From an uncultured Bacteroidales bacterium (GTDB lineage Bacteria > Bacteroidota > Bacteroidia > Bacteroidales > UBA10428), in the NCBI GenBank assembly GCA_964521285.1, contig CAZFQS010000014.1, positions 8,961-72,960 of the forward strand: a stretch of 64,000 nt of DNA, given 5' to 3'. The notes beneath the pieces were generated by a model, which worked only from the letters and a program-made list of their open reading frames with translations, made no database searches and was not told where the DNA came from. A program made the position numbers and the translations under genes. Shown in pieces: positions 1 to 23,493 of this stretch. How positions within the stretch are numbered: position 1 is the stretch's first letter; each line of letters begins with the position of its first letter.

Positions 1-52
1 TTTAAACTATATTTACCTTTCTTTATTGTGAAATTTGGAACAAAAAAATATA

Positions 53-1057
53 ATGGAGAGTTTCCAGATAGCTACAGCCGACTGGTTAAAGGCTTTACAG
101 AAATTAAATGAATCTTTTATAGTATATGCACCTGTTAATAATGGTGATAGCATTGATTACGAGATAGTTGGTGATAATAATATCAATGATATAATATACA
201 ATACTCCCAAGCCTGTTACACCGCTTAAAACATTCTTCCTGCCTGTAAAGGAGAATGTGGTTATTAACAAAAAAATTCACAATAAAAATATAATCATGGG
301 GATTCCCTCATGTGATTTGGCCGGCGTGAGTTTGTTAGATGAAATATATCTTGATAAAGATTTTATAGATCCCTATTACAGGAATGTAAGAGAAAATTCA
401 ATTCTTATTGGAACAGATTGTTTTACTACACAGGAACATTGTCATTGTACTGCATATGGGATTAATCCTTATCCGGAAAAGAATAATGACCTGTCATTGA
501 TTTCTTTAAATGGTTCAATATTAATTTTTGTGAATACGGATAAAGGAATTGAAATTGCTGCCAGGATTAAGGAAGTAGCTACTGTACATGAAATTAGTAG
601 TGAGAATATAAAAGCAGTGCAAACAAAAAGAGAAGCTGTTAAAAAGGAATTAAAAAAGAGTTACAAAAATTTACCGGATTATAAGGAAACCGGAAAACTT
701 ATCATTAAATCAAAGGATGCAATTTGGGAGAAATATGCAAAGACATGTGTTTCTTGTGGTGCCTGTGCAACTATTTGTCCGACTTGTACTTGTTTCCTTT
801 TAATTGACAGGCCTGATTTTGAAAAAGTAAGACAACTGGATGCATGCCAGTATCCAGGGTTTGAAAGGATAGCAGCAGGGGAAGATCCTCTTGGGAGGAA
901 ATATGTGAGGTTCAGAAACAGATACTTATGTAAATATGTATGGAAACCTGAAAAGTTTGAATCAATAGCATGTACAGGTTGCGGCAGATGTATCGAATCA
1001 TGCATAGGCAGTATAAACAAAAACGAATTATTCACCGAATTAGTGAACAAAAAATAA
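53..1057 (+). CDS. Poly-Fe-S protein, AsrA / sulfhydrogenase beta (HydB)-like
   Basis: ORF track 35..1057 opens at TTG; first ATG is at 53. Cys clusters CVSCGACATICPTCTC, CTGCGRCIESC and HCHC. Lies 12 nt upstream of an AsrB-like partner. Confidence 0.75.
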   Translation: MESFQIATADWLKALQKLNESFIVYAPVNNGDSIDYEIVGDNNINDIIYNTPKPVTPLKTFFLPVKENVVINKKIHNKNIIMGIPSCDLAGVSLLDEIYLDKDFIDPYYRNVRENSILIGTDCFTTQEHCHCTAYGINPYPEKNNDLSLISLNGSILIFVNTDKGIEIAARIKEVATVHEISSENIKAVQTKREAVKKELKKSYKNLPDYKETGKLIIKSKDAIWEKYAKTCVSCGACATICPTCTCFLLIDRPDFEKVRQLDACQYPGFERIAAGEDPLGRKYVRFRNRYLCKYVWKPEKFESIACTGCGRCIESCIGSINKNELFTELVNKK

Positions 1058-1069
1058 AATATTACAGAA

Positions 1070-1894
1070 GTGTCAAATATCGGAAGCATATATAAACCTC
1101 TTAAAGCAAAAGTTGATAAGGTAATTACTGAATCGCCTACTATTAAGACACTTGTTCTTATCCCTGAGGCTGATTTTTCTTTTAAAACAGGTGAGTTCAT
1201 TCAACTTACACTTAATGGGTATGGTGAAGCTCCTTTTACACCTTCTTCATCACCACTTGAAAAAAGAAGGCTTGAAGTTACTATTATGAAAGCCGGCTAT
1301 GTTACAGAAAAGGTACATGCACTTAAAGCAGGAGAAGTAGTTGGAATAAGAGGCCCGTTTGGAAGAGGTTATCCTGTAGAGCAATTCTATGGTAAGGAAA
1401 TAGTAATTGTTAGCGGTGGATGTGGTTTTGCACCCATAAGATCATTACTCTATAACCTGATGGCAGAGAAGGAGAAATTTAAGAAAGTGACGGTTTGTTA
1501 CGGAGCAAAAACACCCGAAGAATGCATCTACAAACCCTTTGTTGATGAGTTGAGAAAAACAGAAAGATTTGAGGTATACAGAAGTGTGGATAATGCTGAT
1601 GACAAATGGGAGGAAAAGGAAGGTGTTGTCACCATATTACTTGATGATATAAAGGTAGATATAAAAAATTCAGTAGCGGTTGTTTGTGGTCCGCCGGTTA
1701 TGATGAAGTTTGGCACAATGAAATTACTGGAGATGGGATATCCTGGAAGTGATATTTATTTATCAATGGAAAAGAATATGTCATGTGGCCTTGGTAAATG
1801 CGGACACTGTATGATGGGGAAATATTTTGTATGTAAAGACGGACCTGTTTTTACCTATGAAGAAATTAAAAATGAACCGGATATTTGGTTATAA
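1070..1894 (+). CDS. FAD/NAD(P)-binding 2Fe-2S oxidoreductase, AsrB / HydG / PyrK-like
   Basis: GTG start. Motifs RGPFGRG and VIVSGGCGFAPIRS (nucleotide-binding fold); C-terminal CGLGKCGHC..C 2Fe-2S motif typical of the PyrK/AsrB/sulfhydrogenase gamma family. Confidence 0.8.
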   Translation: MSNIGSIYKPLKAKVDKVITESPTIKTLVLIPEADFSFKTGEFIQLTLNGYGEAPFTPSSSPLEKRRLEVTIMKAGYVTEKVHALKAGEVVGIRGPFGRGYPVEQFYGKEIVIVSGGCGFAPIRSLLYNLMAEKEKFKKVTVCYGAKTPEECIYKPFVDELRKTERFEVYRSVDNADDKWEEKEGVVTILLDDIKVDIKNSVAVVCGPPVMMKFGTMKLLEMGYPGSDIYLSMEKNMSCGLGKCGHCMMGKYFVCKDGPVFTYEEIKNEPDIWL

Positions 1895-1905
1895 TTAGCA
1901 AAAGT

Positions 1906-2376
1906 ATGAGCAAAAAGGTATTAATTGATCTTTATAAGTTGAGGAACCTGGATGAGTGTAAATCCGAGGCTATTTACAAAAGAGGTCCGGACGATAAATC
2001 ATTTAAGACAATAAGGGAACTTGCAACATTTCAGTTTACCTGTCGCAAATGTGATAATGCTCCATGTATAAATGCATGTCCGGCAGATGCACTTGAAAAA
2101 GATAAAGATGGGATCATTAACAGGGCAGTTAATCTTTGTATCAGATGTAAATCATGTATTACAATTTGTCCTTTCGGAACAATGATGGATGATTTATTTG
2201 AAGTTAAAACATCTGATTACAAGTACATGAACTTATCAGATGAGTCAGAACTGGAAAAATTTGCGTCAGCATACCCTGATGATATTGTAAGTATTGTTGA
2301 TATAGATGAGGATCCGAAACAAAACATTTATAAATTAAACGATAAAATATTAGTTAAAGAATATATTTGGGAATGA
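1906..2376 (+). CDS. 2x[4Fe-4S] ferredoxin-like electron-transfer protein (HycB/HydN-like)
   Basis: ORF track starts at TTG 1885 and overlaps the upstream stop; ATG at 1906 (MSKKV) is more likely. Motifs CRKCDNAPCINACP and CIRCKSCITICP. Confidence 0.7.
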   Translation: MSKKVLIDLYKLRNLDECKSEAIYKRGPDDKSFKTIRELATFQFTCRKCDNAPCINACPADALEKDKDGIINRAVNLCIRCKSCITICPFGTMMDDLFEVKTSDYKYMNLSDESELEKFASAYPDDIVSIVDIDEDPKQNIYKLNDKILVKEYIWE

Positions 2377-2399
2377 GTTAAATAATAGAAAATAGAAAT

Positions 2400-3332
2400 A
2401 TGCTAAGAGATTTATTCTACTACTTGATTTATCCGGGCTTTCTTTTTGTTGCTGTTGTAGGCGGATTATTGTCTTTTTTTGACAGAAAGATTACGGCATG
2501 GGTTCAATTCAGAAAAGGACCTCCCTTATTACAGCCATTTTATGATTTCTTCAAACTTCTTCTGGTTAAGGAGACTATAACTCCGGCTAAAGGATCAAAA
2601 ATGACTTTTTTACTGGCACCGGTATTTTCGCTTTTTGGAGCTACTGTATCAAGTGTACTGATATTTCTTCCTTTACTCGGAATTAAAACGGGATTTACCG
2701 GCGATGTCATAGTTATATTTTATTTGCTCACCATTCCTTCCTTATCCTATATTATAGGAGCACTGGCATCCGGAAATCCATTAGCATCAATAGGAGCCTC
2801 AAGAGAAATGAAATTGGTTATCAGCTATGAATTATCATTTTTACTCGTATTAATCGCTATAATAATTAAAAGCGATATGAGTATCAGCCTTTATGATATT
2901 ATTAATGCACAACAACCCGCTAATGCATTCATAGGAAGTGTTTCAGGTGTAATATTATTTATTGTGGTAATCTTTTGCCTGCAGGCTAAATTAGGTCTTG
3001 TACCTTTTGATATGGCTGAAGCAGAAACAGAGATAACACATGGTTCATTTATTGAATATTCTGGTTCTGCCTATGCCCTGATTAAACTGACTAAATACAT
3101 GATGTTATTTACTCTGCCTGCATTTGTTGTTGCACTTTTTATGAAAGGATTTAATTTTGAAGGAATAGGAATTTTATGGACGGTATTAAAAGTGTTGGCC
3201 ATAGTATTAATCTTAACACTGATAAGAAATACTAATCCCAGGGTTAGAATAAGTCAAGCCATGCGGTTCTTCTTTGTATGGATGAACCTGCTGGCTATTA
3301 TTGCTATTGTTTTGATATTTTTTGGATATTAA
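2400..3332 (+). CDS. Hydrogenase membrane anchor, NuoH / HycD / MbhM-like
   Basis: 310 aa polytopic membrane protein at the position and size of the NuoH family. Sits immediately upstream of NuoB/C/D-like hydrogenase core genes. Confidence 0.8.
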   Translation: MLRDLFYYLIYPGFLFVAVVGGLLSFFDRKITAWVQFRKGPPLLQPFYDFFKLLLVKETITPAKGSKMTFLLAPVFSLFGATVSSVLIFLPLLGIKTGFTGDVIVIFYLLTIPSLSYIIGALASGNPLASIGASREMKLVISYELSFLLVLIAIIIKSDMSISLYDIINAQQPANAFIGSVSGVILFIVVIFCLQAKLGLVPFDMAEAETEITHGSFIEYSGSAYALIKLTKYMMLFTLPAFVVALFMKGFNFEGIGILWTVLKVLAIVLILTLIRNTNPRVRISQAMRFFFVWMNLLAIIAIVLIFFGY

Positions 3333-3754
3333 AATTTGAGAAATTGGGCTTTAAAGAATTTTGTTTTAAGAAATCACTCTTTTTGTTTCACTTTGGTGGA
3401 GCATCCTGTAATAACTGTGATATAGAGATTCTCGATTGCCTCACACCAAGATATGATGTCGAAAGGTTTGGGATGCAACTCGTGGGAAGCATAAGACATG
3501 CAGATGTTTTGTTGGTTAACGGTTCTATCAATAAAAAGGATAAACCAAGACTCCTTGAAATTTACAGGCAGGCCCCCAAGCCAATTATAGTGATTGCAAT
3601 AGGAGCCTGCGGCTGTACAGGTGGTATATTTGCAGAAGGTAATACCTTTGCCGGTCCGGTTGACAAAATTATCCCGGTAGACGCTTATATACCCGGATGT
3701 CCGCCAAAACCAGAGGCTATACTAGCTGGTATTGTAAAGCTTCTTAATAAATAA
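3278..3754 (+). CDS. Group 4 [NiFe] hydrogenase small subunit, NuoB / MbhJ / HycG-like
   Basis: Motifs GGASCNNCDIE, GACGCTGG and PGCPP (proximal 4Fe-4S ligands). The ATG at 3278 overlaps the upstream gene by 55 nt, so the true start may be TTG at 3344. Confidence 0.85.
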   Translation: MDEPAGYYCYCFDIFWILKFEKLGFKEFCFKKSLFLFHFGGASCNNCDIEILDCLTPRYDVERFGMQLVGSIRHADVLLVNGSINKKDKPRLLEIYRQAPKPIIVIAIGACGCTGGIFAEGNTFAGPVDKIIPVDAYIPGCPPKPEAILAGIVKLLNK

Positions 3755-3770
3755 AATAAGAATTAAGCAG

Positions 3771-4199
3771 ATGGTATCAATAAAAGACATAGATAATATT
3801 AAGAATTATCTAAAGGGAGATATAATAGAAACAGAAATAAAAAGTGCAACACGTGCAACAGTCACTATTAAGAAAGACGCACTAATCAGGGCTGCCGATT
3901 ATTTGTTTAATAAACTTAAGTTAAGGTTTATTATTGCTTCTGCTTTGGATTCTAAAAAAGGATTTGAGATCTATTATCATTTTAGTAATGATTTTTCAGG
4001 ACTGGTAGCTAATTTGCATGTAATTCTCCCAAAAGAAAAACCGGAAGTAGAATCATTAACAGGATTGTTTGAAGCAGCAAACTGGATTGAGCGTGAAATG
4101 CATGAAATATTAGGCATAAATTTCTTAGGCCATCCTAACCTCGAGAAACTTATTTCTGAAGGAAACTGGGCTAAGGGAGTTTATCCATACAGGAATTAG
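3771..4199 (+). CDS. NuoC / MbhK-like hydrogenase subunit
   Basis: 142 aa. C-terminal ANWIEREMHEILGINFLGHP matches the NuoC/30 kDa subunit signature. Located between NuoB- and NuoD-like genes. Confidence 0.8.
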   Translation: MVSIKDIDNIKNYLKGDIIETEIKSATRATVTIKKDALIRAADYLFNKLKLRFIIASALDSKKGFEIYYHFSNDFSGLVANLHVILPKEKPEVESLTGLFEAANWIEREMHEILGINFLGHPNLEKLISEGNWAKGVYPYRN

Positions 4200-4241
4200 A
4201 AATTTCTAATAGTAGAAAGCTAATAGCTAAAAGCGAAAAAG

Positions 4242-5429
4242 ATGAGTAAAATAATACCAATAGGACCATATCATCCGCTGCAGGAAGAACCTGAACTTTT
4301 CAAATTATACTGTGATGGAGAGATTGTGAAAGATATTAAGTGGGAGACCGGTTATAATCATAGAGGCATAGAAAGACTGAGCGAATCAAAAACTTTTGAT
4401 CAGGCATTTTTCCTTGTTGAAAGAATTTGTGGTATATGTTCGACTTCACATCCCTTTGCATTTGCAAATTGTATGGATGAAATAGCAGGAGTGGAAATAC
4501 CTGACAGGGCAAAATATATACGCAGCATAATTGGAGAATTGGAAAGGATACATAGTCATTTATTATGGGTTGGTCTTGCCGGCCATTTTCTTGGTTATAA
4601 TACTGTATTTATGTGGGCATGGAAATACAGGGAACCTATTCTTGACCTGTTTGAGATCATTACTGGCAACAGGAATAGTTACGCTATGTTCAAGATTGGG
4701 GGCGTCAGAAGAGATATTGAAGAACATAAGATACCAGGAATACAGAAAGTACTGGATTCTTTCAAGAAAAAGAATGATCTGCTCACAGGGGCTGTAATGG
4801 ATGATCCTGTTATACATGCAAGAACAAAAGGAGTAGGTATATTAACAAAAGAAGATATTATTAATTACGCAGCGGTAGGTCCGACAGCCAGGGCTTCAGA
4901 TGTTGCTATAGATGTCAGGAAGGACGATCCATATGCTGCATATCCGTTAGTAAATTGGAAAGTTATTACCGCCAAAGGATGTGATGTTTTTGCAAAGGCT
5001 GAAGTGAGGCTTCTGGAAATGTATGAATCAATCTCAATAATTGAACAATGCCTTGACGGACTGAAAAAGACAAAAGAAGGAGATATTGAAGTAGAAGTTA
5101 GGGAGGTGCCTGCCGGATACGGTACAGGTCATGCTGAAGCTCCCCGCGGTGAAGTATTTCATTTTGTTGTAACAAATGGTTCAAATTACCCGGTAAGGCA
5201 TAAGGTAAGAGCTCCCAGCTATGTGAATATAGCAACCTTTAAAAAATCATGTGTCGGACAGACAATAACAGACGCTACAATTTCACTTGCAGCTGTTGAT
5301 CCCTGCTATTGTTGTACCGAAAGAATGGCTTATGCCTATGATTATAATACCAGAGACAAGATTCTTAATGGAGAAGATATATTAAAGCTATCTCACAAAA
5401 AAACTGAAGAAATAAGAAAAAAGTTGTAA
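4242..5429 (+). CDS. Group 4 membrane-bound [NiFe] hydrogenase large subunit (MbhL / EchE / NuoD-like)
   Basis: N-terminal RICGICSTSH (L1 CxxC) and C-terminal DPCYCCTER (L2 DPCxxCxxR). All four Ni-Fe cysteine ligands are present. Confidence 0.9.
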   Translation: MSKIIPIGPYHPLQEEPELFKLYCDGEIVKDIKWETGYNHRGIERLSESKTFDQAFFLVERICGICSTSHPFAFANCMDEIAGVEIPDRAKYIRSIIGELERIHSHLLWVGLAGHFLGYNTVFMWAWKYREPILDLFEIITGNRNSYAMFKIGGVRRDIEEHKIPGIQKVLDSFKKKNDLLTGAVMDDPVIHARTKGVGILTKEDIINYAAVGPTARASDVAIDVRKDDPYAAYPLVNWKVITAKGCDVFAKAEVRLLEMYESISIIEQCLDGLKKTKEGDIEVEVREVPAGYGTGHAEAPRGEVFHFVVTNGSNYPVRHKVRAPSYVNIATFKKSCVGQTITDATISLAAVDPCYCCTERMAYAYDYNTRDKILNGEDILKLSHKKTEEIRKKL

Positions 5430-5439
5430 TACCTGTAAA

Positions 5440-7332
5440 ATGAACGATATTTTATTAGATAATTCATATTTGACTGTTATAACAGCAATAATTGTTATAC
5501 CTATACTTGTAGGTGTAGTTTTATTTATCTTACCGGAGAAAATAAAAACTGTTAAAGGAATAATTTCACTAATTATTGCTGCACCGGTACTCTATTTTGC
5601 TTACGATATTTTTGCTCAGAAGAGTCTTGCAGGAAAAGCCAATCTTATGGATGCTATTACAATTAAAAGTCAGGTTATTAATACATGGCTTGAAGGGGTT
5701 GGTAAATATACGGCTGTTAACATTGACAGCCTGAGTAAATTAATCGCATTGTTAATTGGCTTTTTCGGATTTATTATTGTTATCTATTCACTTGTTTATA
5801 TAACCAAAGCAAAGGGTATACGTAATTACTATCCCTATGTACTTATAACTCTGGGTTCATCATTTGGCGCAGTTCTCGCAGATAATCTTATACTATTTGT
5901 TGTTTTCTGGGGTATTCTGGCTATTACATGCTATAAATTGATTAAGGGCTATGATGAGGAGAGCTCGGCCGCTGCCAAGAAAACATTAGTTATAATTGGT
6001 GCATCTGATGGTATAATGTTATTAGGAATAGGGATTATATGGAAGATTACAGGTTCTATCAATATGTCTGAATTAAGTATAAATACAACAGATGCAATCA
6101 GAAATATAGCATTTATTACTTTGCTTATTGGAAGTTTTACAAAAGCAGGAGCTATTCCTTTTCACACATGGATTCCTGACTATGTAAAAAAAGCACCTGC
6201 CTCATCTTCAGCTTACCTGCCGGCATCCCTGGACAAGCTTCTGGGAATTTATTTCCTGGCAAGAATCTGTAATGATGTTTTTATACTTAATCAATGGCTG
6301 AGACTGGTAATAATTATCATAGGTGTTTCAACAATAATCATTGCTGTAATGATGGCCTTGATACAACATAATTATAAAAAGCTGTTGGGTTATCATGCGG
6401 TATCACAGGTAGGTTATATGGTGACAGGTCTCGGACTGGGAACTCCTCTGGGGATTATCGGGGGATTATTTCATATGATGAACCATGCTTTATATAAGAG
6501 CGGACTGTTTCTGGTTGCAGGAAGTATTGAAAAGAGCACAGGAAAAGAAGACTTAGATGATATCAGTGGATTATCCCGGGCTATGCCTTTAACATTTATA
6601 ACCGGACTGGTTTTTGCATTGTCAATTTCAGGTATCCCTCCTCTGAACGGTTTTGCTTCCAAATGGACTATATACCAGGGAATAATTGATTTTGGAAAAA
6701 CACCGGGCGTAGCGAATCAACTGTGGATTATATGGCTGTCTCTGGCGGTTATAGGTTCTGCGCTGACATTGGCCAGTTTTATCAAATTTATATCAGGAGC
6801 CTTCCTGGGCCGAAGGAGGGAAGATTTAAAAGATGTTAAGGAAGTCAGTATAATTATGTGGTTTCCACAAGTTGTTCTTGCTTTAATTTGTATCGGTTTT
6901 GGTGTTTTCGCAACAAATTTTGTAATACCAAGGACTTTCATCCCCATTGCGGGCGATTTTCAGTATGTAGGAGCATGGAATTCCACAACAATTTCATTGC
7001 TCATATTGATTTCAATAATACTGGGTATTATTATTTATTTAGTAGGTAATGTTAAAAACTTCCGGGTAGATGACAGTTTTGTAGGAGGGGAAACATTTAG
7101 GGAACAGACAGGTTTTGCTTCAACGGAATTTTATAAGACTATTGCTAATTTTAAGTCGTTTTCATTTATATACAGAAAGGCAGAAGAAAAGTGGTTTGAC
7201 ATATACGATTTATCCAAAAATATAGTACTCTGGCTTAATAAGAAATTTAGTCTGGCACATAATGGAGTTTTATCAAACTATGCAATCTGGATCTTAGCCG
7301 GACTTATTATAATGTTAATATTTTTAATCTGA
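5440..7332 (+). CDS. Antiporter-like proton/sodium-conducting membrane subunit (NuoL / MrpA / MbhH-like)
   Basis: 630 aa with many TM helices. Conserved HTWIPD, GYHAVSQVGYM and HMMNHALYKSGLFL motifs of the NuoL/M/N-MrpA/D family. Confidence 0.85.
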   Translation: MNDILLDNSYLTVITAIIVIPILVGVVLFILPEKIKTVKGIISLIIAAPVLYFAYDIFAQKSLAGKANLMDAITIKSQVINTWLEGVGKYTAVNIDSLSKLIALLIGFFGFIIVIYSLVYITKAKGIRNYYPYVLITLGSSFGAVLADNLILFVVFWGILAITCYKLIKGYDEESSAAAKKTLVIIGASDGIMLLGIGIIWKITGSINMSELSINTTDAIRNIAFITLLIGSFTKAGAIPFHTWIPDYVKKAPASSSAYLPASLDKLLGIYFLARICNDVFILNQWLRLVIIIIGVSTIIIAVMMALIQHNYKKLLGYHAVSQVGYMVTGLGLGTPLGIIGGLFHMMNHALYKSGLFLVAGSIEKSTGKEDLDDISGLSRAMPLTFITGLVFALSISGIPPLNGFASKWTIYQGIIDFGKTPGVANQLWIIWLSLAVIGSALTLASFIKFISGAFLGRRREDLKDVKEVSIIMWFPQVVLALICIGFGVFATNFVIPRTFIPIAGDFQYVGAWNSTTISLLILISIILGIIIYLVGNVKNFRVDDSFVGGETFREQTGFASTEFYKTIANFKSFSFIYRKAEEKWFDIYDLSKNIVLWLNKKFSLAHNGVLSNYAIWILAGLIIMLIFLI

Positions 7333-7356
7333 TAAAGATTTGAAAATTATAAATAT

Positions 7357-7914
7357 ATGGAAATAGTACTCTCAATAGTAATTGTCTTTATGATATTGGG
7401 AGCAATTTATGCCCTCTATGCAAAGGATTTATTATCGGCACTTATCTCTTGCGGGATTGTTGGTTATGGGCTGGTTATCTGCTTCCTGCTTCTTCAGGCT
7501 CCTGATTTGGCTATAGTACAAATTGTTGTAGAAACAATTACATTAGTGATAATGGTTGCTGTTGTTTTGAACAGCACAAGAGAAGAACTTAAAGAAAAGG
7601 CAGTGGTAAACATAGACGGCGTATCTTATGTTCACCAGAGGTATATTGTTAATGTTATACTGGTAGTGGTTTTTGCATTGTTCCTGTTATATTTTTTCAA
7701 GGAATCCATTTTTACCCTGGATCATTTTGGCGAACATGTAACAAGGATGTCAACGGCATATATTGAAAAAGCAGCAGAGCAGACCGGCAGCGCAAATCTT
7801 GTAACCGGGATTCTGTTTGATTTCAGAGGATATGATACTTTGGGTGAGGCAACAATATTGTTTACAGCAGTCATTGGAATATTAACAATTTTAAGAGCAA
7901 AAGGTAAGAAATAA
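7357..7914 (+). CDS. MrpA C-terminal/MrpB-like subunit (MbhD/E-like, DUF4040 + MnhB N-part)
   Basis: 185 aa membrane protein. C-terminal [20 protein letters not shown] is the MnhB-type motif. Confidence 0.65.
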
Positions 7915-7929
7915 GAATAAATTATTATT

Positions 7930-8367
7930 ATGAATGGTATGACTCCAATAGTAAAAAAAGTAACACAACTTATTGTTGGGTTAATTTTCCTGTATGGAAT
8001 TTATATTATAACACACGGACATCTTACCCCTGGCGGAGGATTTGCCGGTGGAGCAGTTGTGGCAGGTTCATTTGTTTTACTGGTACTTGCCTATGGGAGT
8101 AATATCTTAAAATTAAAGAAACGGGAGGAGGGGTCATCAGTTGTTGAGAGTCTTGGAATACTGTTATTTACAGTACTGGCATTTGCTGCAATATTTATAG
8201 GGACAAAGGTCTTTTTCGCAAATTATCTGCCCAAAGGAGTAATAGGTGAATTAATAAGTGCGGGCGTAATTCCTTTATATAATATAGCTGTTGGAATTGA
8301 AGTTGCAGCAGCATTATTCACTATTTTTCTGGCATTAGTAATTTATAAAGAAGAGGTATTAAAATGA
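7930..8367 (+). CDS. MnhB/MrpB-like antiporter subunit (MbhF-like)
   Basis: GHLTPGGGFAGGAV motif typical of the MnhB domain; 145 aa membrane protein. Confidence 0.7.
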   Translation: MNGMTPIVKKVTQLIVGLIFLYGIYIITHGHLTPGGGFAGGAVVAGSFVLLVLAYGSNILKLKKREEGSSVVESLGILLFTVLAFAAIFIGTKVFFANYLPKGVIGELISAGVIPLYNIAVGIEVAAALFTIFLALVIYKEEVLK

Positions 8368-8702
8368 TTGTTTATTTGTTATGTTTTATATTATTCCTGG
8401 TTGGACTTTTTGGAGTATTAACTAAAAGGAATGTAATTAAAATTGTAATAGGCCTTTCAGTAATGGAATTTAGTTTGTTCCTGTTTTTTGCATTAATAGG
8501 ATATATCGATAAAGGAATTGCACCCATTATTGTTCAGAATATACCAAATGCAAAATTTGTTGATCCATTACCGCAGGCAATGGTGCTAACAGCTATTGTA
8601 ATCGGACTGGCTACAAATGCTATGCTGCTTGCCATTGCAATTAGATTATATAAGAAATATAACACTTTTGATATAAGAAAAATAAATAGTTTAAAAGGAT
8701 GA
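8364..8702 (+). CDS. MnhC/MrpC / NuoK-like antiporter subunit (MbhG-like)
   Basis: 112 aa protein with 3 TM helices. ATGA overlaps with both neighbours. Position within the Mrp gene order. Confidence 0.7.
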   Translation: MIVYLLCFILFLVGLFGVLTKRNVIKIVIGLSVMEFSLFLFFALIGYIDKGIAPIIVQNIPNAKFVDPLPQAMVLTAIVIGLATNAMLLAIAIRLYKKYNTFDIRKINSLKG

Positions 8703-10231
8703 TTATGGAGCAATTAATTCCATTATATGTAATACTGCCCCTTGGTGCTGCATTTCTTATTCCTGTAATAGGAAGATTTATTAAAGGCTTTCAAAAGACT
8801 ATTACCTCACTGGTTTTCCTTTTTCTTCTGGCTTTAAGCATAAAGTTCATATTAAATGGAATTAATGAGCCGTTAACATACAAAATCGGTGGATGGGAAC
8901 CAGTTGGCAATATACCTATAGCAATATATTTTGTGCTGGACGGACTCAGTATCTTTATGTTATGTATTGTAAACCTGATAGCATTCCTTTCGGGATTTTA
9001 CGCTATATCCTACATTAAGAAATATACGGCAGAAAATAACTTTTACGCTTTATTCTCTCTTATGGTGGCCGGCATGAATGGAGTAATACTTACAGGTGAT
9101 TTGTTTAATCTTTTTGTATTTTTAGAAATTGCAGTTATTGCTTCGTATGCACTGGTAGCCTTTGGTATTGAAAAAGAAGAACTGGAAGCATCATTCAAAT
9201 ACCAGGTTCTTGGTGGTATGGCTTCTTTATTAATACTCTTTAGTATAGGTCTTTTATATTGGAACACAAAAACATTAAATATTGCTGATATTGCCACATT
9301 GATAAAGGCAGGTACTTACAATAAAATTCTAATCTTTTCTCAGCTTGTATTAATTGCCGGTTTTGGACTGAAAGCAGCAATTATACCATTTCATGCATGG
9401 CTGCCTGATGCACATTCCTCAGCGCCTTCCCCCATATCATCCATGTTATCAGGAGTACTAATAAAGGCAATTGGAATTTATGCTATTATCAGATTATTCT
9501 TTAATATGTTTGCCATATCACATGAAATAGCATTAACCTTAACAACTTTAGGTGTTTTGTCAATGGTAATAGGATCATTATTAGCAATCGGACAATGGGA
9601 TATTAAACGCTTGCTGGCATACTCAAGTATCAGCCAGGTCGGATATATTATAATGGGAGTGGGAATCGGACTTCTTATTTTAACAACAAATGGAAATAAA
9701 GCCATAGCGGCATTATCAATTTTTGGAGGATTGTTTCACCTGGTCAACCATGCTGTATTTAAAGGATTACTGTTTTTAAGTGCAGGAGCTGTTGAACATC
9801 GAACAGGAATAAGGGATTTAAAAAAGCTGGGTGGCTTATCAAGTAAGATGCCAGTCACATCTTCTTCTTCATTAATAGCCTCCCTGGCAATTTCAGGTAT
9901 ACCACCCTTCAATGGATTTTTCAGTAAGCTGGTTATAATAATTGCTGCAATCCAGGCACAGTATTATTGGCTTGCAGCTATTGCTATTGTTATTAGTATT
10001 ATTACGTTGGCATATTTCTTAAAGCTTCAGAAATATGCTTTTTATGGTAAAGCAAATAATAAAATAAATAATTTAAAAGAGGTTCCTTTTACAATGTGCT
10101 TTTCAATGATTGTACTGGCTATATTGTGTATTGGCCTTAGTTTGCTGATAATACCGGGAATAAGGGAAGCAGTAATGGAACCTGCTGTAAATACTTTGAT
10201 TAATAAAGCTAATTATTTGTTAATATTATAA
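8699..10231 (+). CDS. MnhD/MrpD / NuoN-like antiporter subunit
   Basis: 510 aa. Motifs HAWLPDAHSSAPSPIS, SQVGYIIMG and HLVNHAVFKGLLFL of the proton-conducting transporter family. Confidence 0.85.
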   Translation: MIMEQLIPLYVILPLGAAFLIPVIGRFIKGFQKTITSLVFLFLLALSIKFILNGINEPLTYKIGGWEPVGNIPIAIYFVLDGLSIFMLCIVNLIAFLSGFYAISYIKKYTAENNFYALFSLMVAGMNGVILTGDLFNLFVFLEIAVIASYALVAFGIEKEELEASFKYQVLGGMASLLILFSIGLLYWNTKTLNIADIATLIKAGTYNKILIFSQLVLIAGFGLKAAIIPFHAWLPDAHSSAPSPISSMLSGVLIKAIGIYAIIRLFFNMFAISHEIALTLTTLGVLSMVIGSLLAIGQWDIKRLLAYSSISQVGYIIMGVGIGLLILTTNGNKAIAALSIFGGLFHLVNHAVFKGLLFLSAGAVEHRTGIRDLKKLGGLSSKMPVTSSSSLIASLAISGIPPFNGFFSKLVIIIAAIQAQYYWLAAIAIVISIITLAYFLKLQKYAFYGKANNKINNLKEVPFTMCFSMIVLAILCIGLSLLIIPGIREAVMEPAVNTLINKANYLLIL

Positions 10232-10241
10232 GAAATATAAT

Positions 10242-10727
10242 ATGAAATACATTTTTGCTTTTATAATATTGCTGGGTTTCTGGTTACTTTTTACTTATAG
10301 TATTGAAACTCCTAATTTAATTGTTGGTGCTGTCGCATCATTAATTACTGTATTGGTATTTGCAAAACATTTTGTTAAACCTGTGTGGAAAATGCTGCAG
10401 CCTCAGCGGTATTTCTGGTTTATTATTTACCTGATTGTGTTTATATGGGAGTGTATTAAAGCTAATTTCGATGTGGCATACAGGGTATTGCATCCTGCTA
10501 TGCCCATAAAACCGGGGATCGTAAAAGTAAAACTCAACCTGAAAACAAATATGGCAAAAACTATTTTGGCCAATTCAATTACAATGACACCGGGAACAAT
10601 TACTGTAGATTTGATAGATGACACTTTATATGTACACTGGATTTATGTAAGCAGTACTGATCCTGAAGTATATAGCAAGAAAGTTGCAGGAAGATTCGAG
10701 AAATATATAAAGAAGATATTTGAATAA
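10242..10727 (+). CDS. MnhE/MrpE-like antiporter subunit
   Basis: 161 aa with N-terminal TM helices. Size and order (before the F and G homologues) fit MrpE. Confidence 0.65.
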   Translation: MKYIFAFIILLGFWLLFTYSIETPNLIVGAVASLITVLVFAKHFVKPVWKMLQPQRYFWFIIYLIVFIWECIKANFDVAYRVLHPAMPIKPGIVKVKLNLKTNMAKTILANSITMTPGTITVDLIDDTLYVHWIYVSSTDPEVYSKKVAGRFEKYIKKIFE

Positions 10728-10747
10728 TTAACGATAAAAAATTAAAA

Positions 10748-11014
10748 ATGAACCAGCTGCTTTATTACTTTTTGTATACTCAGATTGCCCTTTGTTTCTT
10801 CTGTCTGTACAGAATAATAAGAGGGCCAACAATAGCTGACAGAATGGTTGGAATAGATATTTTCGGTATTCTCGTGGTTGGTATCTGCGCAATAATAGCA
10901 GTCATAACTGATCGTATGTTTATTATTGATATTGGAATTGCGTGGATTATTTTAAGTTTCATAGGCACATTAACTTTAGCAAAATATTTAGGAGGAAGAA
11001 ATCTAAATGAGTAA
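10748..11014 (+). CDS. MnhF/MrpF-like antiporter subunit
   Basis: 88 aa. YRIIRGPTIADRMVGIDI matches the MrpF signature (RxxxGPxxxDR). Confidence 0.75.
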   Translation: MNQLLYYFLYTQIALCFFCLYRIIRGPTIADRMVGIDIFGILVVGICAIIAVITDRMFIIDIGIAWIILSFIGTLTLAKYLGGRNLNE

Positions 11015-11360
11015 AATTATTTTTATAATACTGCTATCAATAGGTATTTTATTTAATTTATTTGGTTGCATCGGACTTTTAAGGTTACCTGATGTGTATA
11101 ACAGACTGCAGTCAGCAACCAAATGTGTAACACTTGGAACCTGCAGTATACTTCTTAGCCTTATAGTATATTACGGATTTGATGAAATAGGGGTTAAAGC
11201 CTTGATCGCCATTCCATTATTATTTTTCGCAGCTACAGTAGCTGCACATGCCCTTATCAGAGGTTCATATTTCTTTGGCATCAAGCTGGGAGAGAAAAGT
11301 GTTAAAGATGATTATAAAGAAGTCGCCGGATCAGATAAAAATAAAGAATCGAAAAAATGA
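11007..11360 (+). CDS. MnhG/MrpG-like antiporter subunit
   Basis: 117 aa. GLLRLPDVYNRLQSATK matches the MrpG signature (RxPDxxxRxHaxxK-like). Confidence 0.75.
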   Translation: MSKIIFIILLSIGILFNLFGCIGLLRLPDVYNRLQSATKCVTLGTCSILLSLIVYYGFDEIGVKALIAIPLLFFAATVAAHALIRGSYFFGIKLGEKSVKDDYKEVAGSDKNKESKK

Positions 11361-11965
11361 AGTATCCTAAATTAAGAGAAGTTAAAGAAGCGGTAATTTC
11401 ATTATTGACTCCGGCTTATACAACAAAATTCCCTAAAAAGCCGCATACTCCGTTTGAGAATTACAGAGGGAAGCCGGTAGTTGATGATGAAAATTGTGTT
11501 GGTTGCGAAACTTGCGCTAATGTATGTCCTCCACATGCCATAACTTTTAAAGATGATAAAAAGAAGAAGCTAAGAGTTATTGAAAGAAATTACGGATTAT
11601 GTATTTTTTGCGGACAATGCCAGGACCATTGTATTACGGGCAAGGGTGTTAAGTTATCAGATAAAATATTTGATCTGGCAACCTTTGACAGATCTCAGCT
11701 GGTTGAGAAACAGGAAAAAGAACTTCTTGTATGCGAGAATTGCGGCGCTATAATAACAACAAAGGAACATATACAATATTTGCATAAAAAGCTAGGTCCG
11801 ATAGCCTATTCTTCTATCCTTAACCTGAATATGCTGAATGAGAAATTAAAACTTGCCGAGCCTAAAGATGTTAGTTTTGATGTTAAAGATGAATTAAAGA
11901 GAAAGGATACATTTAATATCATCTGTCCGAACTGCCTGAGAAAGGTGCTGGTAAAGAGTATATAG
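11357..11965 (+). CDS. NuoI / MbhN / HycF-like 2x[4Fe-4S] subunit with extra C-terminal CxxC..CxxC extension
   Basis: Motifs CVGCETCANVCP and CIFCGQCQDHC, plus distal CENCG and CPNCLRK pairs. ATGA overlap with the MrpG-like gene. Confidence 0.8.
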   Translation: MKYPKLREVKEAVISLLTPAYTTKFPKKPHTPFENYRGKPVVDDENCVGCETCANVCPPHAITFKDDKKKKLRVIERNYGLCIFCGQCQDHCITGKGVKLSDKIFDLATFDRSQLVEKQEKELLVCENCGAIITTKEHIQYLHKKLGPIAYSSILNLNMLNEKLKLAEPKDVSFDVKDELKRKDTFNIICPNCLRKVLVKSI

Positions 11966-12109
11966 GCTCTTCCGGTTAAACCAGGTATATCTTTTTCGGT
12001 GAAATTACCAGCATTTATACCTTTTTCCTCCTGATTTTATTTTTTCTTTTGTAATTTACATTTATCGGATAATAAGATATATAAAGACTATAGAATAAAA
12101 TAATACAAA

Positions 12110-12568
12110 TTGGTCGAATTACATAAGTACTTCCTGAAGCAGAAGAATAAGAGTCTGCTGTTTGTCGGAATAGGTAATATACTAAGAAGCGATGACGGTG
12201 CAGGTGTATACATATGCAGGAACATAATGGCAGCAAATAATATAGGGACTTTAATAGCGGAGGTAAGCATTGAAAATTACATTTCAAAAATTAATGACTT
12301 AAATCCGGATATATTAATTCTTGTTGATTGTGTAAATTTTAATAAAAAGCCGGGTTATTTTGATTTGCTTCCGGTTGAAAAGATAAAAGACTTTACTACA
12401 AATACCCATAATATTTCACTTAAGAGAATATCGGAATTTTTTAAAATGAAAGTACTTGTTTTGGGAATTCAGCCTGCTTCACTGAATTTTGGGGAAAGAC
12501 TTAGCAGGCAGGTAAAGGAATCAGCAGACAGAATAGTGGAGAATATAAATCGAATATTGTCATCCTGA
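12110..12568 (+). CDS. Hydrogenase maturation endopeptidase (HycI-like)
   Basis: TTG start. LLFVGIGNILRSDDGAGVYI matches the GNxxxxDDGxG protease motif. Lies 144 nt after the NuoI-like gene. Confidence 0.8.
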   Translation: MVELHKYFLKQKNKSLLFVGIGNILRSDDGAGVYICRNIMAANNIGTLIAEVSIENYISKINDLNPDILILVDCVNFNKKPGYFDLLPVEKIKDFTTNTHNISLKRISEFFKMKVLVLGIQPASLNFGERLSRQVKESADRIVENINRILSS

Positions 12569-12719: not shown

Positions 12720-13145
12720 ATGGGTAAGCATCTAATATCACTTAAAGTAAAATGCCCTAATTGCAAAAAATCACTTATGGATTATACTCAATATCTTAAT
12801 GGGAAACCTAGTATCAAGGTTCACATAGGAGTGGGTAAAAGTAAAGGAGTAATAAATTTATGTTCAACTTATGGTTGTTATGAGAAGGTTAGTAATATAG
12901 ATTTAATAGAAGGTGAAATAGCCAGATTATCTTGTCCCCATTGCAAAAAGGAATTTTCCGGAACCAGTTTATGTGATGATTGTGATGCTCCTATAATCGA
13001 TTTCAATCTTGAAAAGGGAGGAAAGGTTCATGTTTGTTCGCGTATTGGTTGTAAGAAACATTTTGTTTCTTTCGAAGACATTTATGATACACTATCGAAT
13101 TTTTATGCTAATTATAATTACGGGGCAAGAGATATTGATTTCTGA
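12720..13145 (+). CDS. Uncharacterised duplicated zinc-ribbon protein
   Basis: 141 aa. Internally repeated pattern CPNC..CSTYGC and CPHC..CDDC..CSRIGC. Isolated between the two hydrogenase operons by 151 and 287 nt spacers. Confidence 0.6.
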   Translation: MGKHLISLKVKCPNCKKSLMDYTQYLNGKPSIKVHIGVGKSKGVINLCSTYGCYEKVSNIDLIEGEIARLSCPHCKKEFSGTSLCDDCDAPIIDFNLEKGGKVHVCSRIGCKKHFVSFEDIYDTLSNFYANYNYGARDIDF

Positions 13146-13432: not shown

Positions 13433-15229
13433 ATGGAAAATAATTTAAAGAGTATAATTGAAAAGTATAATAAAGATAATTACAGGTTATTGGATATGTT
13501 ACTGGATTTGCAGGCGGAATTTGGTTTTATATCAAAAGAGGCTATTGAGCTCATTGCAGATGAATTGATGTTATCTGAAGCTGATGTTATACAAACAGCA
13601 TCATTTTATCATTTCCTTTCATTGAAACCGGTTGGAAAATATGCCATTTATATTAATAATAGTGCTGTTGCGAATATGATGGGCAGGAAAGAAGTTGTAT
13701 CTACATTTGAGAAAGAAACAGGTATTAAAATCGGACAGGTAACTCCTGATGGACTGATAGGATTATATAATACATCCTGTATCGGTATGAATGATCAGGA
13801 ACCTGCTGCTATAATAAATAACCGCATTTTTACCAAACTAACTCCATTCAGGGTAAAAGAAATAGTCAGGGATATTAAGCAGGGTAAGAACGTTGACAAT
13901 ATGTTTTCAGCGGGTTATGGTGACGGGAAGAACAGTTCGGAATTTATCAAGGCTGTTGTTAACAATAATATAATGAAGAAAGGTCCGACACTGGATTCAA
14001 ATTACAAGGTGGGCGAGGCATTATATAAAGTATTGAATATGACACCTGAGGAAGTAATTGAAGAGATTAAAGTCTCTAATTTAAGGGGAAGGGGAGGAGC
14101 AGGTTTTCCAACCGGACTAAAGTGGCAGTTTTGCAGAAATTCTTCAGGAGACAGGAAATATATCTTTTGCAATGCTGATGAAGGTGAACCAGGTACCTTT
14201 AAAGATCGGGTAATATTGACTGAATTACCCATGTTGCTTCTTGAAGGAATGGTTATAGCCGGATATGCTGTAGGAGCTACTGAAGGAATAATATATGTCC
14301 GTTATGAATATAAATATTTACAGAAATATCTGGAAGATATACTTCAAAAATTTATGAAGGATAACTATATAGGCAAAGATATATGCGGTAAGAAAGGTTT
14401 TAATTTCAATATAAGAATTCAGTATGGTGCCGGAGCCTATATTTGTGGTCAGGAATCCGCTTTACTGGAATCTGCTGAAGGTAAAAGAGGAGAACCCAGA
14501 GACGCACCTCCTTTTCCGGTTGAAAACGGGTATCAAAATATGCCTACTGTAGTAAATAATGTTGAAACTCTTTGTGCTGTTGTCAGGATAATTATAAATG
14601 GAAGTGAATGGTACAGAGAACTTGGTACACACGAATCAACAGGAACCAAAATAATCAGTATATCTGGTGATTGCCGTTTTCCTGGTGTTTATGAAATTGA
14701 ATGGGGTATAACTTTAAATGACATTCTTGATATGGCTGGTGCAACAGATATACAGGCAGTACATGTAGGGGGGCCCTCAGGGGCACTGATTGCACAAAAT
14801 GAATTTAACAGAAAACTAGGATATGAGGATCTTGCCACAGGAGGAGCAATCATAATAATCAGTAATAAGAGGGATCTCTTATCTGATATTGTGTACCCCT
14901 CAATGGAATTTTTTATTGAAGAGTCATGTGGCAGTTGTTCTACCTGCAGGATTGTACCCAGACTGCTTCAAACCAAGCTTAAAAACCTGATCGATGGAAG
15001 AGCAATTATGCAGGATATTGATGATATGGTCAGCTGGGGCAAGATATTAAAAGCCAGTCGTTGTGGCTTAGGACAGACTGCTGCTAATCCGATTTTATCC
15101 AGTATAAAGAATTTTAGAAATTTATATGAAGAAAAGGTACAAAAGAACAAAGATTTTGCAACTAGTTTTGATTTAAATGCTGCCATCAAAGAGTCCTGTG
15201 AAGCAGCAAACAGAATACCTAATGTTTAA
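13433..15229 (+). CDS. hoxF: NAD-reducing hydrogenase diaphorase subunit HoxF (NuoE-like N-domain fused to NuoF-like FMN/NADH/4Fe-4S domain)
   Basis: GRGGAGFPTGLKW (FMN), CNADEGEPGTFKD (NADH) and ESCGSCSTCR..RCGLG (4Fe-4S). The N-terminal NuoE-like fold lacks the 2Fe-2S cysteines. Confidence 0.9.
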   Translation: MENNLKSIIEKYNKDNYRLLDMLLDLQAEFGFISKEAIELIADELMLSEADVIQTASFYHFLSLKPVGKYAIYINNSAVANMMGRKEVVSTFEKETGIKIGQVTPDGLIGLYNTSCIGMNDQEPAAIINNRIFTKLTPFRVKEIVRDIKQGKNVDNMFSAGYGDGKNSSEFIKAVVNNNIMKKGPTLDSNYKVGEALYKVLNMTPEEVIEEIKVSNLRGRGGAGFPTGLKWQFCRNSSGDRKYIFCNADEGEPGTFKDRVILTELPMLLLEGMVIAGYAVGATEGIIYVRYEYKYLQKYLEDILQKFMKDNYIGKDICGKKGFNFNIRIQYGAGAYICGQESALLESAEGKRGEPRDAPPFPVENGYQNMPTVVNNVETLCAVVRIIINGSEWYRELGTHESTGTKIISISGDCRFPGVYEIEWGITLNDILDMAGATDIQAVHVGGPSGALIAQNEFNRKLGYEDLATGGAIIIISNKRDLLSDIVYPSMEFFIEESCGSCSTCRIVPRLLQTKLKNLIDGRAIMQDIDDMVSWGKILKASRCGLGQTAANPILSSIKNFRNLYEEKVQKNKDFATSFDLNAAIKESCEAANRIPNV

Positions 15230-15240
15230 AATAGAATGAA

Positions 15241-15951
15241 ATGGAAAAAATCGTAAAATTCACAATTGACGGAAGGGAATGTATGGCTAATAAAGGCCAG
15301 TTCATACTTAGTGCTGCAAAAGAAAACGGAATATATATTCCGGCTTTATGTAATTACCCGGGCATAAAACCCAGAGGAAGCTGCAGGATATGTACCGTGC
15401 TGGTAAATGGAAGATTAATGACTGCATGCACTACACCAATTGCTAATGCTATGATTATTGAAAATGATACTGATAAGATAAATGAACTCAGAAAATCAAT
15501 AATAGAATTGTTATTTATTGAAGGTAATCATTTTTGCCCTTCATGTGAAAAAAGCGGAAATTGCGAACTTCAGGCTTTAGCATACCGTTTCAAAATCATG
15601 GCGCCGAGATTTCCATACCAGTTTCCAATGAGGAAAGTATATGCATCTATTCCAAAGATTATAAAGGAACAAAACAGGTGTATTCTTTGTAAGCGGTGTA
15701 TCCGTACTATTAAAGATGAGAAGGGCAGAAGTGTTTTTGCTTACAGAAGAAGAAGTACCAGAACAGAAGTGATTGTAGATAATAAATTGGGTCATCAACT
15801 TACGGATGAACTTGCACAGAAAGCTATGGATGTGTGCCCTGTCGGATCTATTATTTACAAAGGAAAAGGATTTTCCATACCTATAGGCAAACGTAAATAT
15901 GATGAAAAACCTATTGGAAGCGAAATTGATGAAATTAATGTTTCTAAATAA
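15241..15951 (+). CDS. hoxU: NAD-reducing hydrogenase diaphorase Fe-S subunit HoxU (NuoG N-terminal-like)
   Basis: 2Fe-2S motif C..GSCRIC..C, HFCPSCEKSGNCELQ (HxxxCxxCxxxxxC) and CILCKRCIR..CPVG. Confidence 0.9.
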   Translation: MEKIVKFTIDGRECMANKGQFILSAAKENGIYIPALCNYPGIKPRGSCRICTVLVNGRLMTACTTPIANAMIIENDTDKINELRKSIIELLFIEGNHFCPSCEKSGNCELQALAYRFKIMAPRFPYQFPMRKVYASIPKIIKEQNRCILCKRCIRTIKDEKGRSVFAYRRRSTRTEVIVDNKLGHQLTDELAQKAMDVCPVGSIIYKGKGFSIPIGKRKYDEKPIGSEIDEINVSK

Positions 15952-15966
15952 TAAAGGAAAAAAACA

Positions 15967-16515: not shown

Positions 16516-16528
16516 AGAGGTAAGAGAA

Positions 16529-20089: not shown

Positions 20090-20122
20090 GTTCAGGCGCT
20101 GTCCCCTTTTCTAACCATATAA

Positions 20123-23457: not shown

Positions 23458-23493
23458 GCAGTTATAATATACAAATTTAATGCTTGTAATTAT

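Follow-up and report, generated by a model that had tools for sequence, protein, structure and literature searches.

A Hun-type operon in an uncultured Bacteroidales bacterium: a candidate NAD(P)(H)-linked, Mrp-coupled group 4 [NiFe] hydrogenase

What is the electron partner of an Mrp-linked group 4 [NiFe] hydrogenase whose operon opens with homologues of the beta and gamma subunits of a sulfhydrogenase? The question is raised by 17 close-packed plus-strand genes at positions 35–12568 of a 64,000-nt stretch of contig CAZFQS010000014.1 (GCA_964521285.1; this whole stretch is called the window), from an uncultured Bacteroidales bacterium. A first-pass annotation had seen in them an Mrp-coupled group 4 hydrogenase joined, within one operon, to the beta/gamma module of a sulfhydrogenase-type enzyme, a reading of the architecture that is fully borne out here, and had implied that this architecture was new. 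The same gene set was, however, described and named in 2019–2021 as the putative 16-subunit “Hun” Ni-Fe hydrogenase–Na+/H+ antiporter supercomplex (Glass et al., bioRxiv 10.1101/536078; Environ Microbiol 2021), carried by metagenome-assembled genomes (MAGs) of Atribacteria, Firmicutes, Omnitrophica, Elusimicrobia and Bacteroidetes and by Kosmotoga isolates, and AsrA/AsrB-like genes next to Mrp-linked group 4 hydrogenases were reported in 2019 and 2026. Glass et al. (10.1101/536078) inferred ferredoxin as the electron source of HunABC. We find NAD(P)(H) better supported than ferredoxin as the partner, and lean slightly towards it, because HunB has conserved FAD and NAD(P) motifs, the closest structures to the input module are sulfhydrogenase beta and gamma subunits, and the operon is linked to Rex.

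The operon and its electron-input module

Judged by its gene content, the window operon is a Hun operon, and the architecture thus already has a name. Table S5 (10.1101/536078) gives PF06971 and PF02629 for hunR, Fer4_22 for hunA, NAD_binding_1, FAD_binding_6 and DHODB_Fe-S_bind for hunB, Fer4_11 for hunC, NADHdh for hunD, then hunE–hunH, DUF4040 for hunI, MnhB for hunJ, and hunK, hunL and onward; the Pfam order of the window agrees with it row by row from hunA to hunL. The genes hunM–hunP match by the stated 16 subunits, the Mnh homologues and the place of HunP in the hydrogenase module. The diagnostic CGIC and CYCC motifs of HunG are present in the window, hunR lies upstream (on an identical contig, L165, just beyond the window's 5' end), and no architectural difference from the published operon was seen, the 144-nt spacer ahead of the protease gene being the window's own. 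Pfam and NCBIfam bear out the domain assignments of the first-pass annotation, including CGLGKCGHC in the window's HunB, with one correction: the supposed MrpB homologue at 7357–7914 is the C-terminal domain of MrpA (MbhD + MbhE/DUF4040), aligned by NCBIfam to MrpA residues ~600–790.

The first two subunits find their closest solved relatives in soluble hydrogenase I (SHI), the NADPH-dependent group 3b sulfhydrogenase of Pyrococcus furiosus. The best Protein Data Bank (PDB) match of HunA, which has 16 invariant cysteines, is the SHI beta subunit (9nez_B, E 5e-35); its NCBIfam scores (ShyB 162 bits, HydB 137, AsrA 129) all lie far under the cut-offs. Foldseek places SHI beta (9nf0_B and 9nez_B) at the top for an AlphaFold2 model of HunA, the NADPH-bound SHI complex ranking first. 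As this model (53–1057) was built from an 11-sequence alignment, with a mean predicted local distance difference test score of 62.7, and is good only for residues 1–210, the fold comparison backs the relationship to SHI beta and nothing further. After SHI beta, the N-terminal domain also matches FrhB/FdhB-type subunits of F420-dependent enzymes (E 2e-5 to 8e-4), a likeness that hints at shared ancestry of such electron-input modules.

HunB, in turn, is matched best by SHI gamma (9nez_C, E 2.5e-51), with PyrK- and NfnA-type (4ylf) NAD(P)-binding subunits next, and its best NCBIfam matches are hydrogenase gamma, AsrB (201 bits), ShyC and HydG. Window proteins score 137–181 bits against the ShyB, HydB, ShyC and HydG models, whose cut-offs are 600–750. 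In 81 sequences from several phyla, the HunB motifs GEAPFTPSSSP, GGxGxAPxRS, CGPP and CGxGxCGxC are conserved to 97% or more, a constraint on FAD and NAD(P) binding that would be hard to explain if HunB were merely an Fe-S wire. The loop after strand beta-2, K-T-P-x-[D/E], aligns with R-Y-G-K-D of the NADPH-dependent SHI gamma and gives no decision between NADH and NADPH.

The connectors between this pair and the hydrogenase are likewise informative. HunC matches HycB-type subunits in the PDB (9mqx_E, HycB4 and HycB3 of the hydrogen-dependent CO2 reductase, and HycB of formate hydrogenlyase, FHL); it retains two of the four cysteine groups of such proteins, and its motifs CxxCxxxxCxxxCP and CxxCxxCxxxCP are conserved. 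HunP scores 73 bits against HycF (7z0s_F) vs. 48.5 bits against MbhN, and shares with HycF a C-terminal CxxC...CxxC extension that is conserved in 80 relatives. HycF docks a HycB-type connector, whereas MbhN accepts free ferredoxin. By these matches, the HunC/HunP connectors are of the FHL type, i.e., the kind that docks a soluble dehydrogenase.

This arrangement recurs well beyond the window. Relatives of HunA number more than 1,300 at E <= 1e-10, with a homologue also in the cultured Marinilabiliaceae bacterium JC017. When each species was represented by a single genome, at least 507 genomes were seen to encode one; the best 80 of these, fetched through their hunA relatives, are mostly Bacteroidales MAGs but include Cloacimonadota, Omnitrophota, Aerophobetes and Actinomycetota (at least five phyla). 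A genome search for AsrA/AsrB-like genes directly upstream of nuoH-like hydrogenase genes had been proposed; in every one of the 80 loci, gene order and strand are as in the window as far as contig or flank extends, the SHI-beta-like gene always first. The hunC–hunD gap has a median of 10 nt (76 loci), and the hunB–hunC gap reaches at most 640 nt (79 loci), which leaves no room there for a molybdopterin protein. For the 3' end, 80 further loci were collected from metagenome contigs via the HunP-like protein, and the 42 of at least 5 kb were evaluated: the order MrpE-F-G-hunP holds in 42/42, and hycI comes next in all 39 that extend beyond hunP, overlapping the hunP stop by ~8 nt. Independent gene calls give the same 16+1 genes in two complete genomes. 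The gene arrangement is far from chance. Antiporter-like subunits vary in number within the Hun family: one Aerophobetes locus (L078) has an additional MrpD-like gene, located between hunG and hunH.

Rex senses NADH/NAD+, and a Rex-type gene lies divergently 150–230 nt 5' of hunA in ~52 of the 70 loci with enough upstream DNA (L081 among them). The copy in the closest relative (L001) scores 214.6 bits vs. the NCBIfam Rex equivalog cut-off of 138. The same gene belongs to the window's own locus: the Logan contig L165, 100% identical to window 1–7515, carries rex at 5039–5641 on the minus strand, ending 118 nt ahead of window base 1. Of 77 hunA upstream regions, 56 contain a site with at most three mismatches to the Rex operator consensus TTGTGAAnnnnTTCACAA (PMC2883068); among random 260-nt segments drawn from these loci the share is 2.9%. 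Perfect copies are present in Aerophobetes and several Bacteroidales. The sequence of the window site (TTGTGAAATTTGGAACAA, 26–43) recurs in its nearest relatives (L001–L003, L008, L023 and L081), where it lies at -22 to -27. In the work of Glass et al. (10.1101/536078), hunR appears in the supplementary table only and is not discussed in the main text; the link to a Rex operator is added here. Taken together, gene and operator suggest that hun expression is probably derepressed by the adjacent Rex as NADH/NAD+ rises, so that the operon would be switched on when NADH accumulates, which fits a role as a redox valve.

The large subunit has the marks of a genuine hydrogenase. HunG carries the motifs RICGICSTSH (L1) and DPCYCCTER (L2), with all four [NiFe] cysteines, and continues for 34 residues beyond L2; on this basis, it is a true [NiFe] protein in need of C-terminal processing, and a gene for a HycI-type protease does follow hunP. 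The ligands and the protease set it apart from MBS, Ehr and complex I. Both motifs are invariant in 65 relatives. Against solved structures, HunG scores 273 bits with MbhL, 269 with HycE and 168 with MbsL, i.e., by these scores it is about equidistant from MbhL and HycE and less close to the sulfane reductase subunit. In an exhaustive search of 1.84 billion representatives, of which 150 at 50% identity were compared, DPCYCCTER is confined to the top-scoring Hun-type clusters, beyond which the similarity score falls from 521 to 394 bits; HunG is therefore a tight clade. A sister large subunit of 583 aa in the representative library (P0121), 59% identical and a NuoC–NuoD fusion, has DPCYSCTER in place of the CYCC form.

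Mechanism, energetics and rival explanations

Gene content, cofactor and nucleotide motifs, synteny and the Rex gene/operator linkage are observed, and they are consistent with an ion-translocating Hun that reversibly oxidises NAD(P)H with protons as the acceptor; such an enzyme would amount to a complex I with H+/H2 in the place of quinone, a group 3b-derived input and an expression level set by Rex. We regard this composite picture as about evenly poised between right and wrong. Physical assembly, the NAD(P)H substrate, the order of the carriers, ion coupling, direction and Rex control are what such a model would predict. Specifically, a core of HunE, HunF, HunG and HunP would sit on HunD beside an ion-translocating arm (HunH–HunO), with HunA, HunB and HunC as a peripheral module. 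The FAD of HunB would exchange hydride with NAD(P)H, and single electrons would then pass from the HunB [2Fe-2S] cluster to the HunA clusters, the two [4Fe-4S] clusters of HunC and the two clusters of HunP, and onward through the proximal cluster of HunE to HunG, at whose [NiFe] site protons and H2 would be interconverted. Turnover would be coupled to Na+/H+ movement via the NuoH-like subunit and the Mrp arm, as in the membrane-bound hydrogenase (MBH).

The first-pass annotation had held that H2 evolution from NAD(P)H is endergonic, and had offered two options, i.e., an ion gradient that drives it or energy conservation during H2-dependent NAD(P)+ reduction. The first statement holds at high H2 (a calculated cost of 8–24 kJ/mol at 1 bar) but fails at 1–10 Pa H2 with a reduced NADPH pool, where at an NADPH/NADP+ of 10–50 the reaction is exergonic, with a calculated yield of 10–20 kJ/mol; translocation at 150 mV comes, by calculation, to ~14.5 kJ/mol per ion. 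Both options are valid, yet the pair is incomplete, as energy-conserving H2 evolution in H2-scavenged habitats is also possible. These energetics would therefore permit a reversible Hun to run in either direction: at low H2 (e.g., in anoxic sediments), NAD(P)H-driven H2 evolution would export ions, and at high H2, the gradient would drive H2 evolution, or H2 oxidation would reduce NAD(P)+ and conserve energy.

Several points weigh against an NAD(P)(H) partner. The sole paper on the operon proposes ferredoxin (10.1101/536078), and HydDB-based work places Hun-like enzymes in group 4g, a loosely drawn class without an established function that carries the label “ferredoxin-coupled (putative)”; HunG itself was reported as group 4g yet distant from other 4g members (10.1101/536078). 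The literature holds no biochemical, transcript or structural data for any Hun complex, and our search of it found no biochemical work on the plain HunABC variant and no experimental data on Hun from Kosmotoga or Atribacter. The window's own Rex site, with three mismatches, is not significant alone (10 matches vs. 8 expected), so the Rex signal becomes visible only across relatives, and, because Rex also controls ferredoxin-dependent hydrogenases in other bacteria (PMC6391272), the linkage argues for redox balancing more than for a specific donor. Finally, a Hox-type NAD-linked hydrogenase is encoded next door. A second NADH-linked enzyme would be superfluous in part, but not if Hun works with NADPH or is under other control; the same neighbour argues that Hun is not a simple duplicate.

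How, then, do other explanations fare? If Hun were ferredoxin-driven, HunABC would only relay electrons from reduced ferredoxin, and the complex would evolve H2 and export Na+/H+ as MBH does. AsrB, a relative of HunB, uses NAD(P)(H), and Asr is generally held to be NADH-linked, contrary to the premise that AsrAB is fed by ferredoxin. The other characterised relatives of HunB (SHI gamma, PyrK and NfnA, 4ylf) all use NAD(P)(H) as well, its near-invariant FAD and NAD(P) motifs would be unneeded in an Fe-S wire, and MBH manages without a flavoprotein, ferredoxin going straight to MbhN. Still, this is the proposal of Glass et al. (10.1101/536078) and the default reading of group 4g, MBH is the closest characterised Mrp-linked hydrogenase (its MbhL being the 273-bit match of HunG) and uses ferredoxin, and a ferredoxin-producing 2-oxoacid:ferredoxin oxidoreductase is encoded close by in the window (25213–27685). 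We consider a purely ferredoxin-driven Hun unlikely. Far more improbable, in our judgement, is a sulfur-linked enzyme, in which HunAB would reduce polysulfide, sulfur or sulfite and electrons from H2 or ferredoxin would end on a sulfur compound. Such a sulfur role was once suggested for sulfhydrogenase beta/gamma and for Asr, although physiologically SHI interconverts H2 and NADPH. HunA and HunB do score 129 and 201 bits against the AsrA and AsrB models, and relatives carry the JGI label “sulfhydrogenase subunit beta (sulfur reductase)”. Against this, those scores lie under the NCBIfam cut-offs of 323 and 289 bits, the siroheme subunit AsrC is absent from the operon and from the 80 loci, and the [NiFe] ligands lost in the sulfane reductase MBS are all kept, with a HycI protease co-encoded.

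A three-way junction, which we rate a little lower than the ferredoxin-driven enzyme, would make Hun an ion-translocating ferredoxin:NAD(P)+ oxidoreductase with an H2 overflow valve, or a confurcating enzyme that draws on ferredoxin and NAD(P)H together to form H2. Flavin bifurcation is not known for the FAD bound by SHI gamma- and NfnA-type subunits, and no ferredoxin-binding element was identified. The 16 invariant cysteines of HunA do imply more clusters than a linear wire requires, and related clusters invite the comparison: group 4b clusters with an inactive formate dehydrogenase (Fdh)-like protein and SHI beta/gamma homologues, whose branched AlphaFold model was read as a bifurcating H2/NADPH system (PMC13582414, September 2026); a cluster in Saganbacteria RX5A with asrA, asrB and cooF beside an Mrp-linked group 4 hydrogenase and a molybdopterin subunit (PMC6349859, 2019); and MBX, first proposed as a ferredoxin:NADP+ oxidoreductase, of which an NADPH-dehydrogenase-linked form with a SudA-type subunit was proposed for Thermosphaera in 2010. 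The group 4b and Saganbacteria clusters share the AsrAB-like module and the Mrp-linked group 4 enzyme with Hun; the molybdopterin subunit found there is absent from the window operon and its 80 relatives, and the short hunB–hunC gap offers it no place. The plain HunABC variant is covered by none of these three proposals.

An NAD(P)(H)-linked Hun would matter beyond this locus. Many uncultured anaerobes of sediments, digesters and the deep biosphere carry a Hun-type operon, and metabolic reconstructions now count these operons as ferredoxin-dependent, H2-evolving “group 4g Mbh”; the locus of Candidatus Tenebribacter mawsonii (L057), for example, was published as a “group 4g Mbh linked to Mrp, ferredoxin-dependent”, with its two upstream genes unmentioned. 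Should NAD(P)(H) prove to be the partner, the redox balance, H2 flux and energy yield now modelled for these organisms would need revision, Hun would be the first pyridine-nucleotide-coupled group 4 hydrogenase and thus a new type of coupling for the group, and anaerobic Bacteroidales, Cloacimonadota, Atribacterota and Omnitrophota would possess an uncounted route of NAD(P)H reoxidation and H2 formation, or an H2-driven supply of NAD(P)H. The Rex link provides a simple regulatory handle on the donor question.

Layout of the locus and its surroundings

The open reading frame (ORF) listing bears out the layout first described: 17 same-strand ORFs (Table 1), spacers of 10–42 nt, overlaps of 4–8 nt between neighbours at 8364, 8699, 11007 and 11357, and a protease gene set off by 144 nt. 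The longest-ORF versions give two further overlaps (1885/1894 and 3278/3332), which are probably due to alternative start codons further upstream. On identical contigs, gene callers place the start of hunA at ATG 53 (334 aa) and that of hunC at ATG 1906 (156 aa), and the apparent 1885/1894 overlap therefore disappears; the N-terminal 25 residues of the longest HunE ORF are unconserved among relatives, and the homologue in L082 begins directly after the NuoH-like gene. All 13 terminator-like hairpin matches are intragenic, which leaves the gaps of the operon free of them. A sigma-70 promoter scan, with 72 matches vs. 62.6 expected, was uninformative, and Bacteroidota promoters also differ from that consensus. 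The hunP–protease spacer (11966–12109) is AT-rich and, set against the ~8-nt overlap in relatives, appears to be a peculiarity of the window locus; it may be a local insertion or hold an internal promoter.

Table 1. Coordinates of the hun genes and associated features in the window
Feature	Position	Strand	Assignment and remarks
Rex-operator-like site TTGTGAAATTTGGAACAA	26..43	+	10 nt 5' of hunA ATG 53; 3 mismatches to TTGTGAANNNNTTCACAA
hunA	35..1057	+	SHI-beta/AsrA-like poly-Fe-S protein; Pfam Fer4_22; probable start 53
hunB	1070..1894	+	SHI-gamma/AsrB-like FAD / NAD(P) / [2Fe-2S] flavoprotein; Pfam FAD_binding_6, NAD_binding_1, DHODB_Fe-S_bind
hunC	1885..2376	+	HycB/CooF-type connector, 2 Cys groups (2x[4Fe-4S]); Pfam Fer4_11; probable start 1906
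hunD	2400..3332	+	NuoH/MbhM-like membrane anchor; Pfam NADHdh, E 1.6e-65
hunE	3278..3754	+	NuoB/MbhJ-like small subunit; Pfam Oxidored_q6; true start probably just past 3332
hunF	3771..4199	+	NuoC/MbhK-like subunit; Pfam Complex1_30kDa
hunG	4242..5429	+	Group 4 [NiFe] large subunit; Pfam Complex1_49kDa + NiFeSe_Hases
hunH	5440..7332	+	MrpA(N-terminal)/NuoL-like antiporter subunit; Pfam Proton_antipo_M; NCBIfam MrpA/MrpD families
hunI	7357..7914	+	MrpA C-terminal domain, MbhD+MbhE, DUF4040, 185 aa; Pfam MbhD, MbhE
hunJ	7930..8367	+	MrpB/MnhB-like; Pfam MnhB
hunK	8364..8702	+	MrpC/NuoK-like; Pfam Oxidored_q2
hunL	8699..10231	+	MrpD/NuoN-like antiporter subunit; Pfam Proton_antipo_M, Proton_antipo_N
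hunM	10242..10727	+	MrpE; Pfam MNHE
hunN	10748..11014	+	MrpF; Pfam MrpF_PhaF
hunO	11007..11360	+	MrpG; Pfam PhaG_MnhG_YufB
hunP	11357..11965	+	NuoI/HycF-like 2x[4Fe-4S] subunit; NCBIfam formate hydrogenlyase Fe-S subunit, 106 bits
Protease gene	12110..12568	+	HycI-type maturation endopeptidase for HunG; TIGR00072 89.9 bits (above cut-off); hycI 86.8 bits

Downstream, the operon adjoins the Hox-type cluster mentioned above (13433–18466, same strand), apparently a soluble NAD-linked group 3 (3d-like) hydrogenase, which consists of a NuoE/F fusion (598 aa), a HoxU-like 2Fe-2S/4Fe-4S protein, a small subunit, a large subunit (VhuA-like, 380 bits) and a protease of its own; genes like those for NuoF and HoxU are also found on the far side of rex in ~21/80 relatives. 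The stretch between the hydrogenase clusters holds, at 12720–13145, a gene for a 141-aa protein with four CxxC pairs and weak zinc-ribbon matches; homologues adjoin hun in L008 and L084. Regulatory genes at 18685–21012 and 37710–40184, near the hydrogenase clusters, encode a stand-alone response regulator, a LytTR-type regulator and a PAS-rich hybrid histidine kinase.

The genes at 21343–27685 encode an ADP-forming acetyl-CoA synthetase, an aminotransferase and the three-subunit 2-oxoacid:ferredoxin oxidoreductase, a putative amino-acid fermentation module that would make reduced ferredoxin. A palindrome, TTGTTAATTTTTTAACAA, with two mismatches to the Rex consensus lies at 24865–24882, in the gap ahead of the oxidoreductase genes. 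In relatives, the [NiFe] maturation genes hypF, hypC, hypD, hypE and hypB are found just past rex (L031 1737–9795; L081 2837–6402), where hyp, rex and hun form a hydrogenase island. An AlaDh_PNT (alanine dehydrogenase) gene follows rex on L165 and L081, and in L081 hypF, hypC and hypD come next.

Comparison with known systems

Hun resembles the P. furiosus MBH (group 4d; PDB 6CFW) in its group 4 [NiFe] core, NuoH-like anchor and Mrp-derived subunits. The two differ in their electron entry, MBH having no flavoprotein or HycB-like subunit and taking free ferredoxin at MbhN where Hun has HunABC, and in their membrane arm: the 14 subunits MbhA–N include one antiporter-like subunit, whereas the window operon encodes two (HunH and HunL) within a full Mrp set. 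The alignment of HunG with the solved MbhL chain stops at L2, HunG being 34 residues longer, with a HycI gene present. Membership of group 4d was rejected on account of the three extra soluble subunits (a flavoprotein among them), the second antiporter-like subunit and the HycF-like NuoI subunit.

With SHI (group 3b; PDB 9NEZ, 9NF0), Hun shares what MBH lacks, as SHI beta and gamma are the best solved relatives of HunA and HunB and their FAD, NAD(P) and Fe-S motifs are common to both. SHI is, however, cytoplasmic, built on group 3 alpha/delta subunits and without ion coupling, whereas the partner of HunAB would be a membrane group 4 module reached via HunC and HunP. A group 3b sulfhydrogenase (SHI/SHII) was rejected, since only beta/gamma homologues are present, the large subunit is of the Complex1_49kDa/group 4 type and the NCBIfam scores fall far below the cut-offs. 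AsrABC was set aside too (no AsrC-like gene in the operon or 80 loci; TIGR02910 129 vs. 323; TIGR02911 201 vs. 289), as was MBS, given the complete [NiFe] ligands of HunG and the co-encoded HycI protease.

The wiring recalls that of Escherichia coli FHL-1 (group 4a; PDB 7Z0S), which likewise connects a HycB-type ferredoxin to HycF and has a HycI protease and a C-terminal extension: HycE scores 269 bits to HunG, HycF is the best match of HunP, and HycB is matched by HunC. Hun differs in having no formate dehydrogenase, two rather than four cysteine groups in HunC and a full Mrp membrane arm. Formate hydrogenlyases and CO-dependent Mrp hydrogenases (groups 4a/4b/4c) were rejected because no formate dehydrogenase or carbon monoxide dehydrogenase subunit is encoded among the 17 genes.

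The overall plan also recalls respiratory complex I. Like it, Hun would be L-shaped, with a flavoprotein as the entry for pyridine nucleotides, a chain of Fe-S clusters, a NuoB/C/D/H/I core and pumps of the antiporter type. The Hun input is not homologous to NuoEFG, and its [NiFe] ligands are kept, so that electrons would end on H+/H2 and not on quinone. If Hun is indeed NAD(P)(H)-linked, it would offer a living counterpart to the transition from a membrane hydrogenase to an NADH-oxidising complex I.

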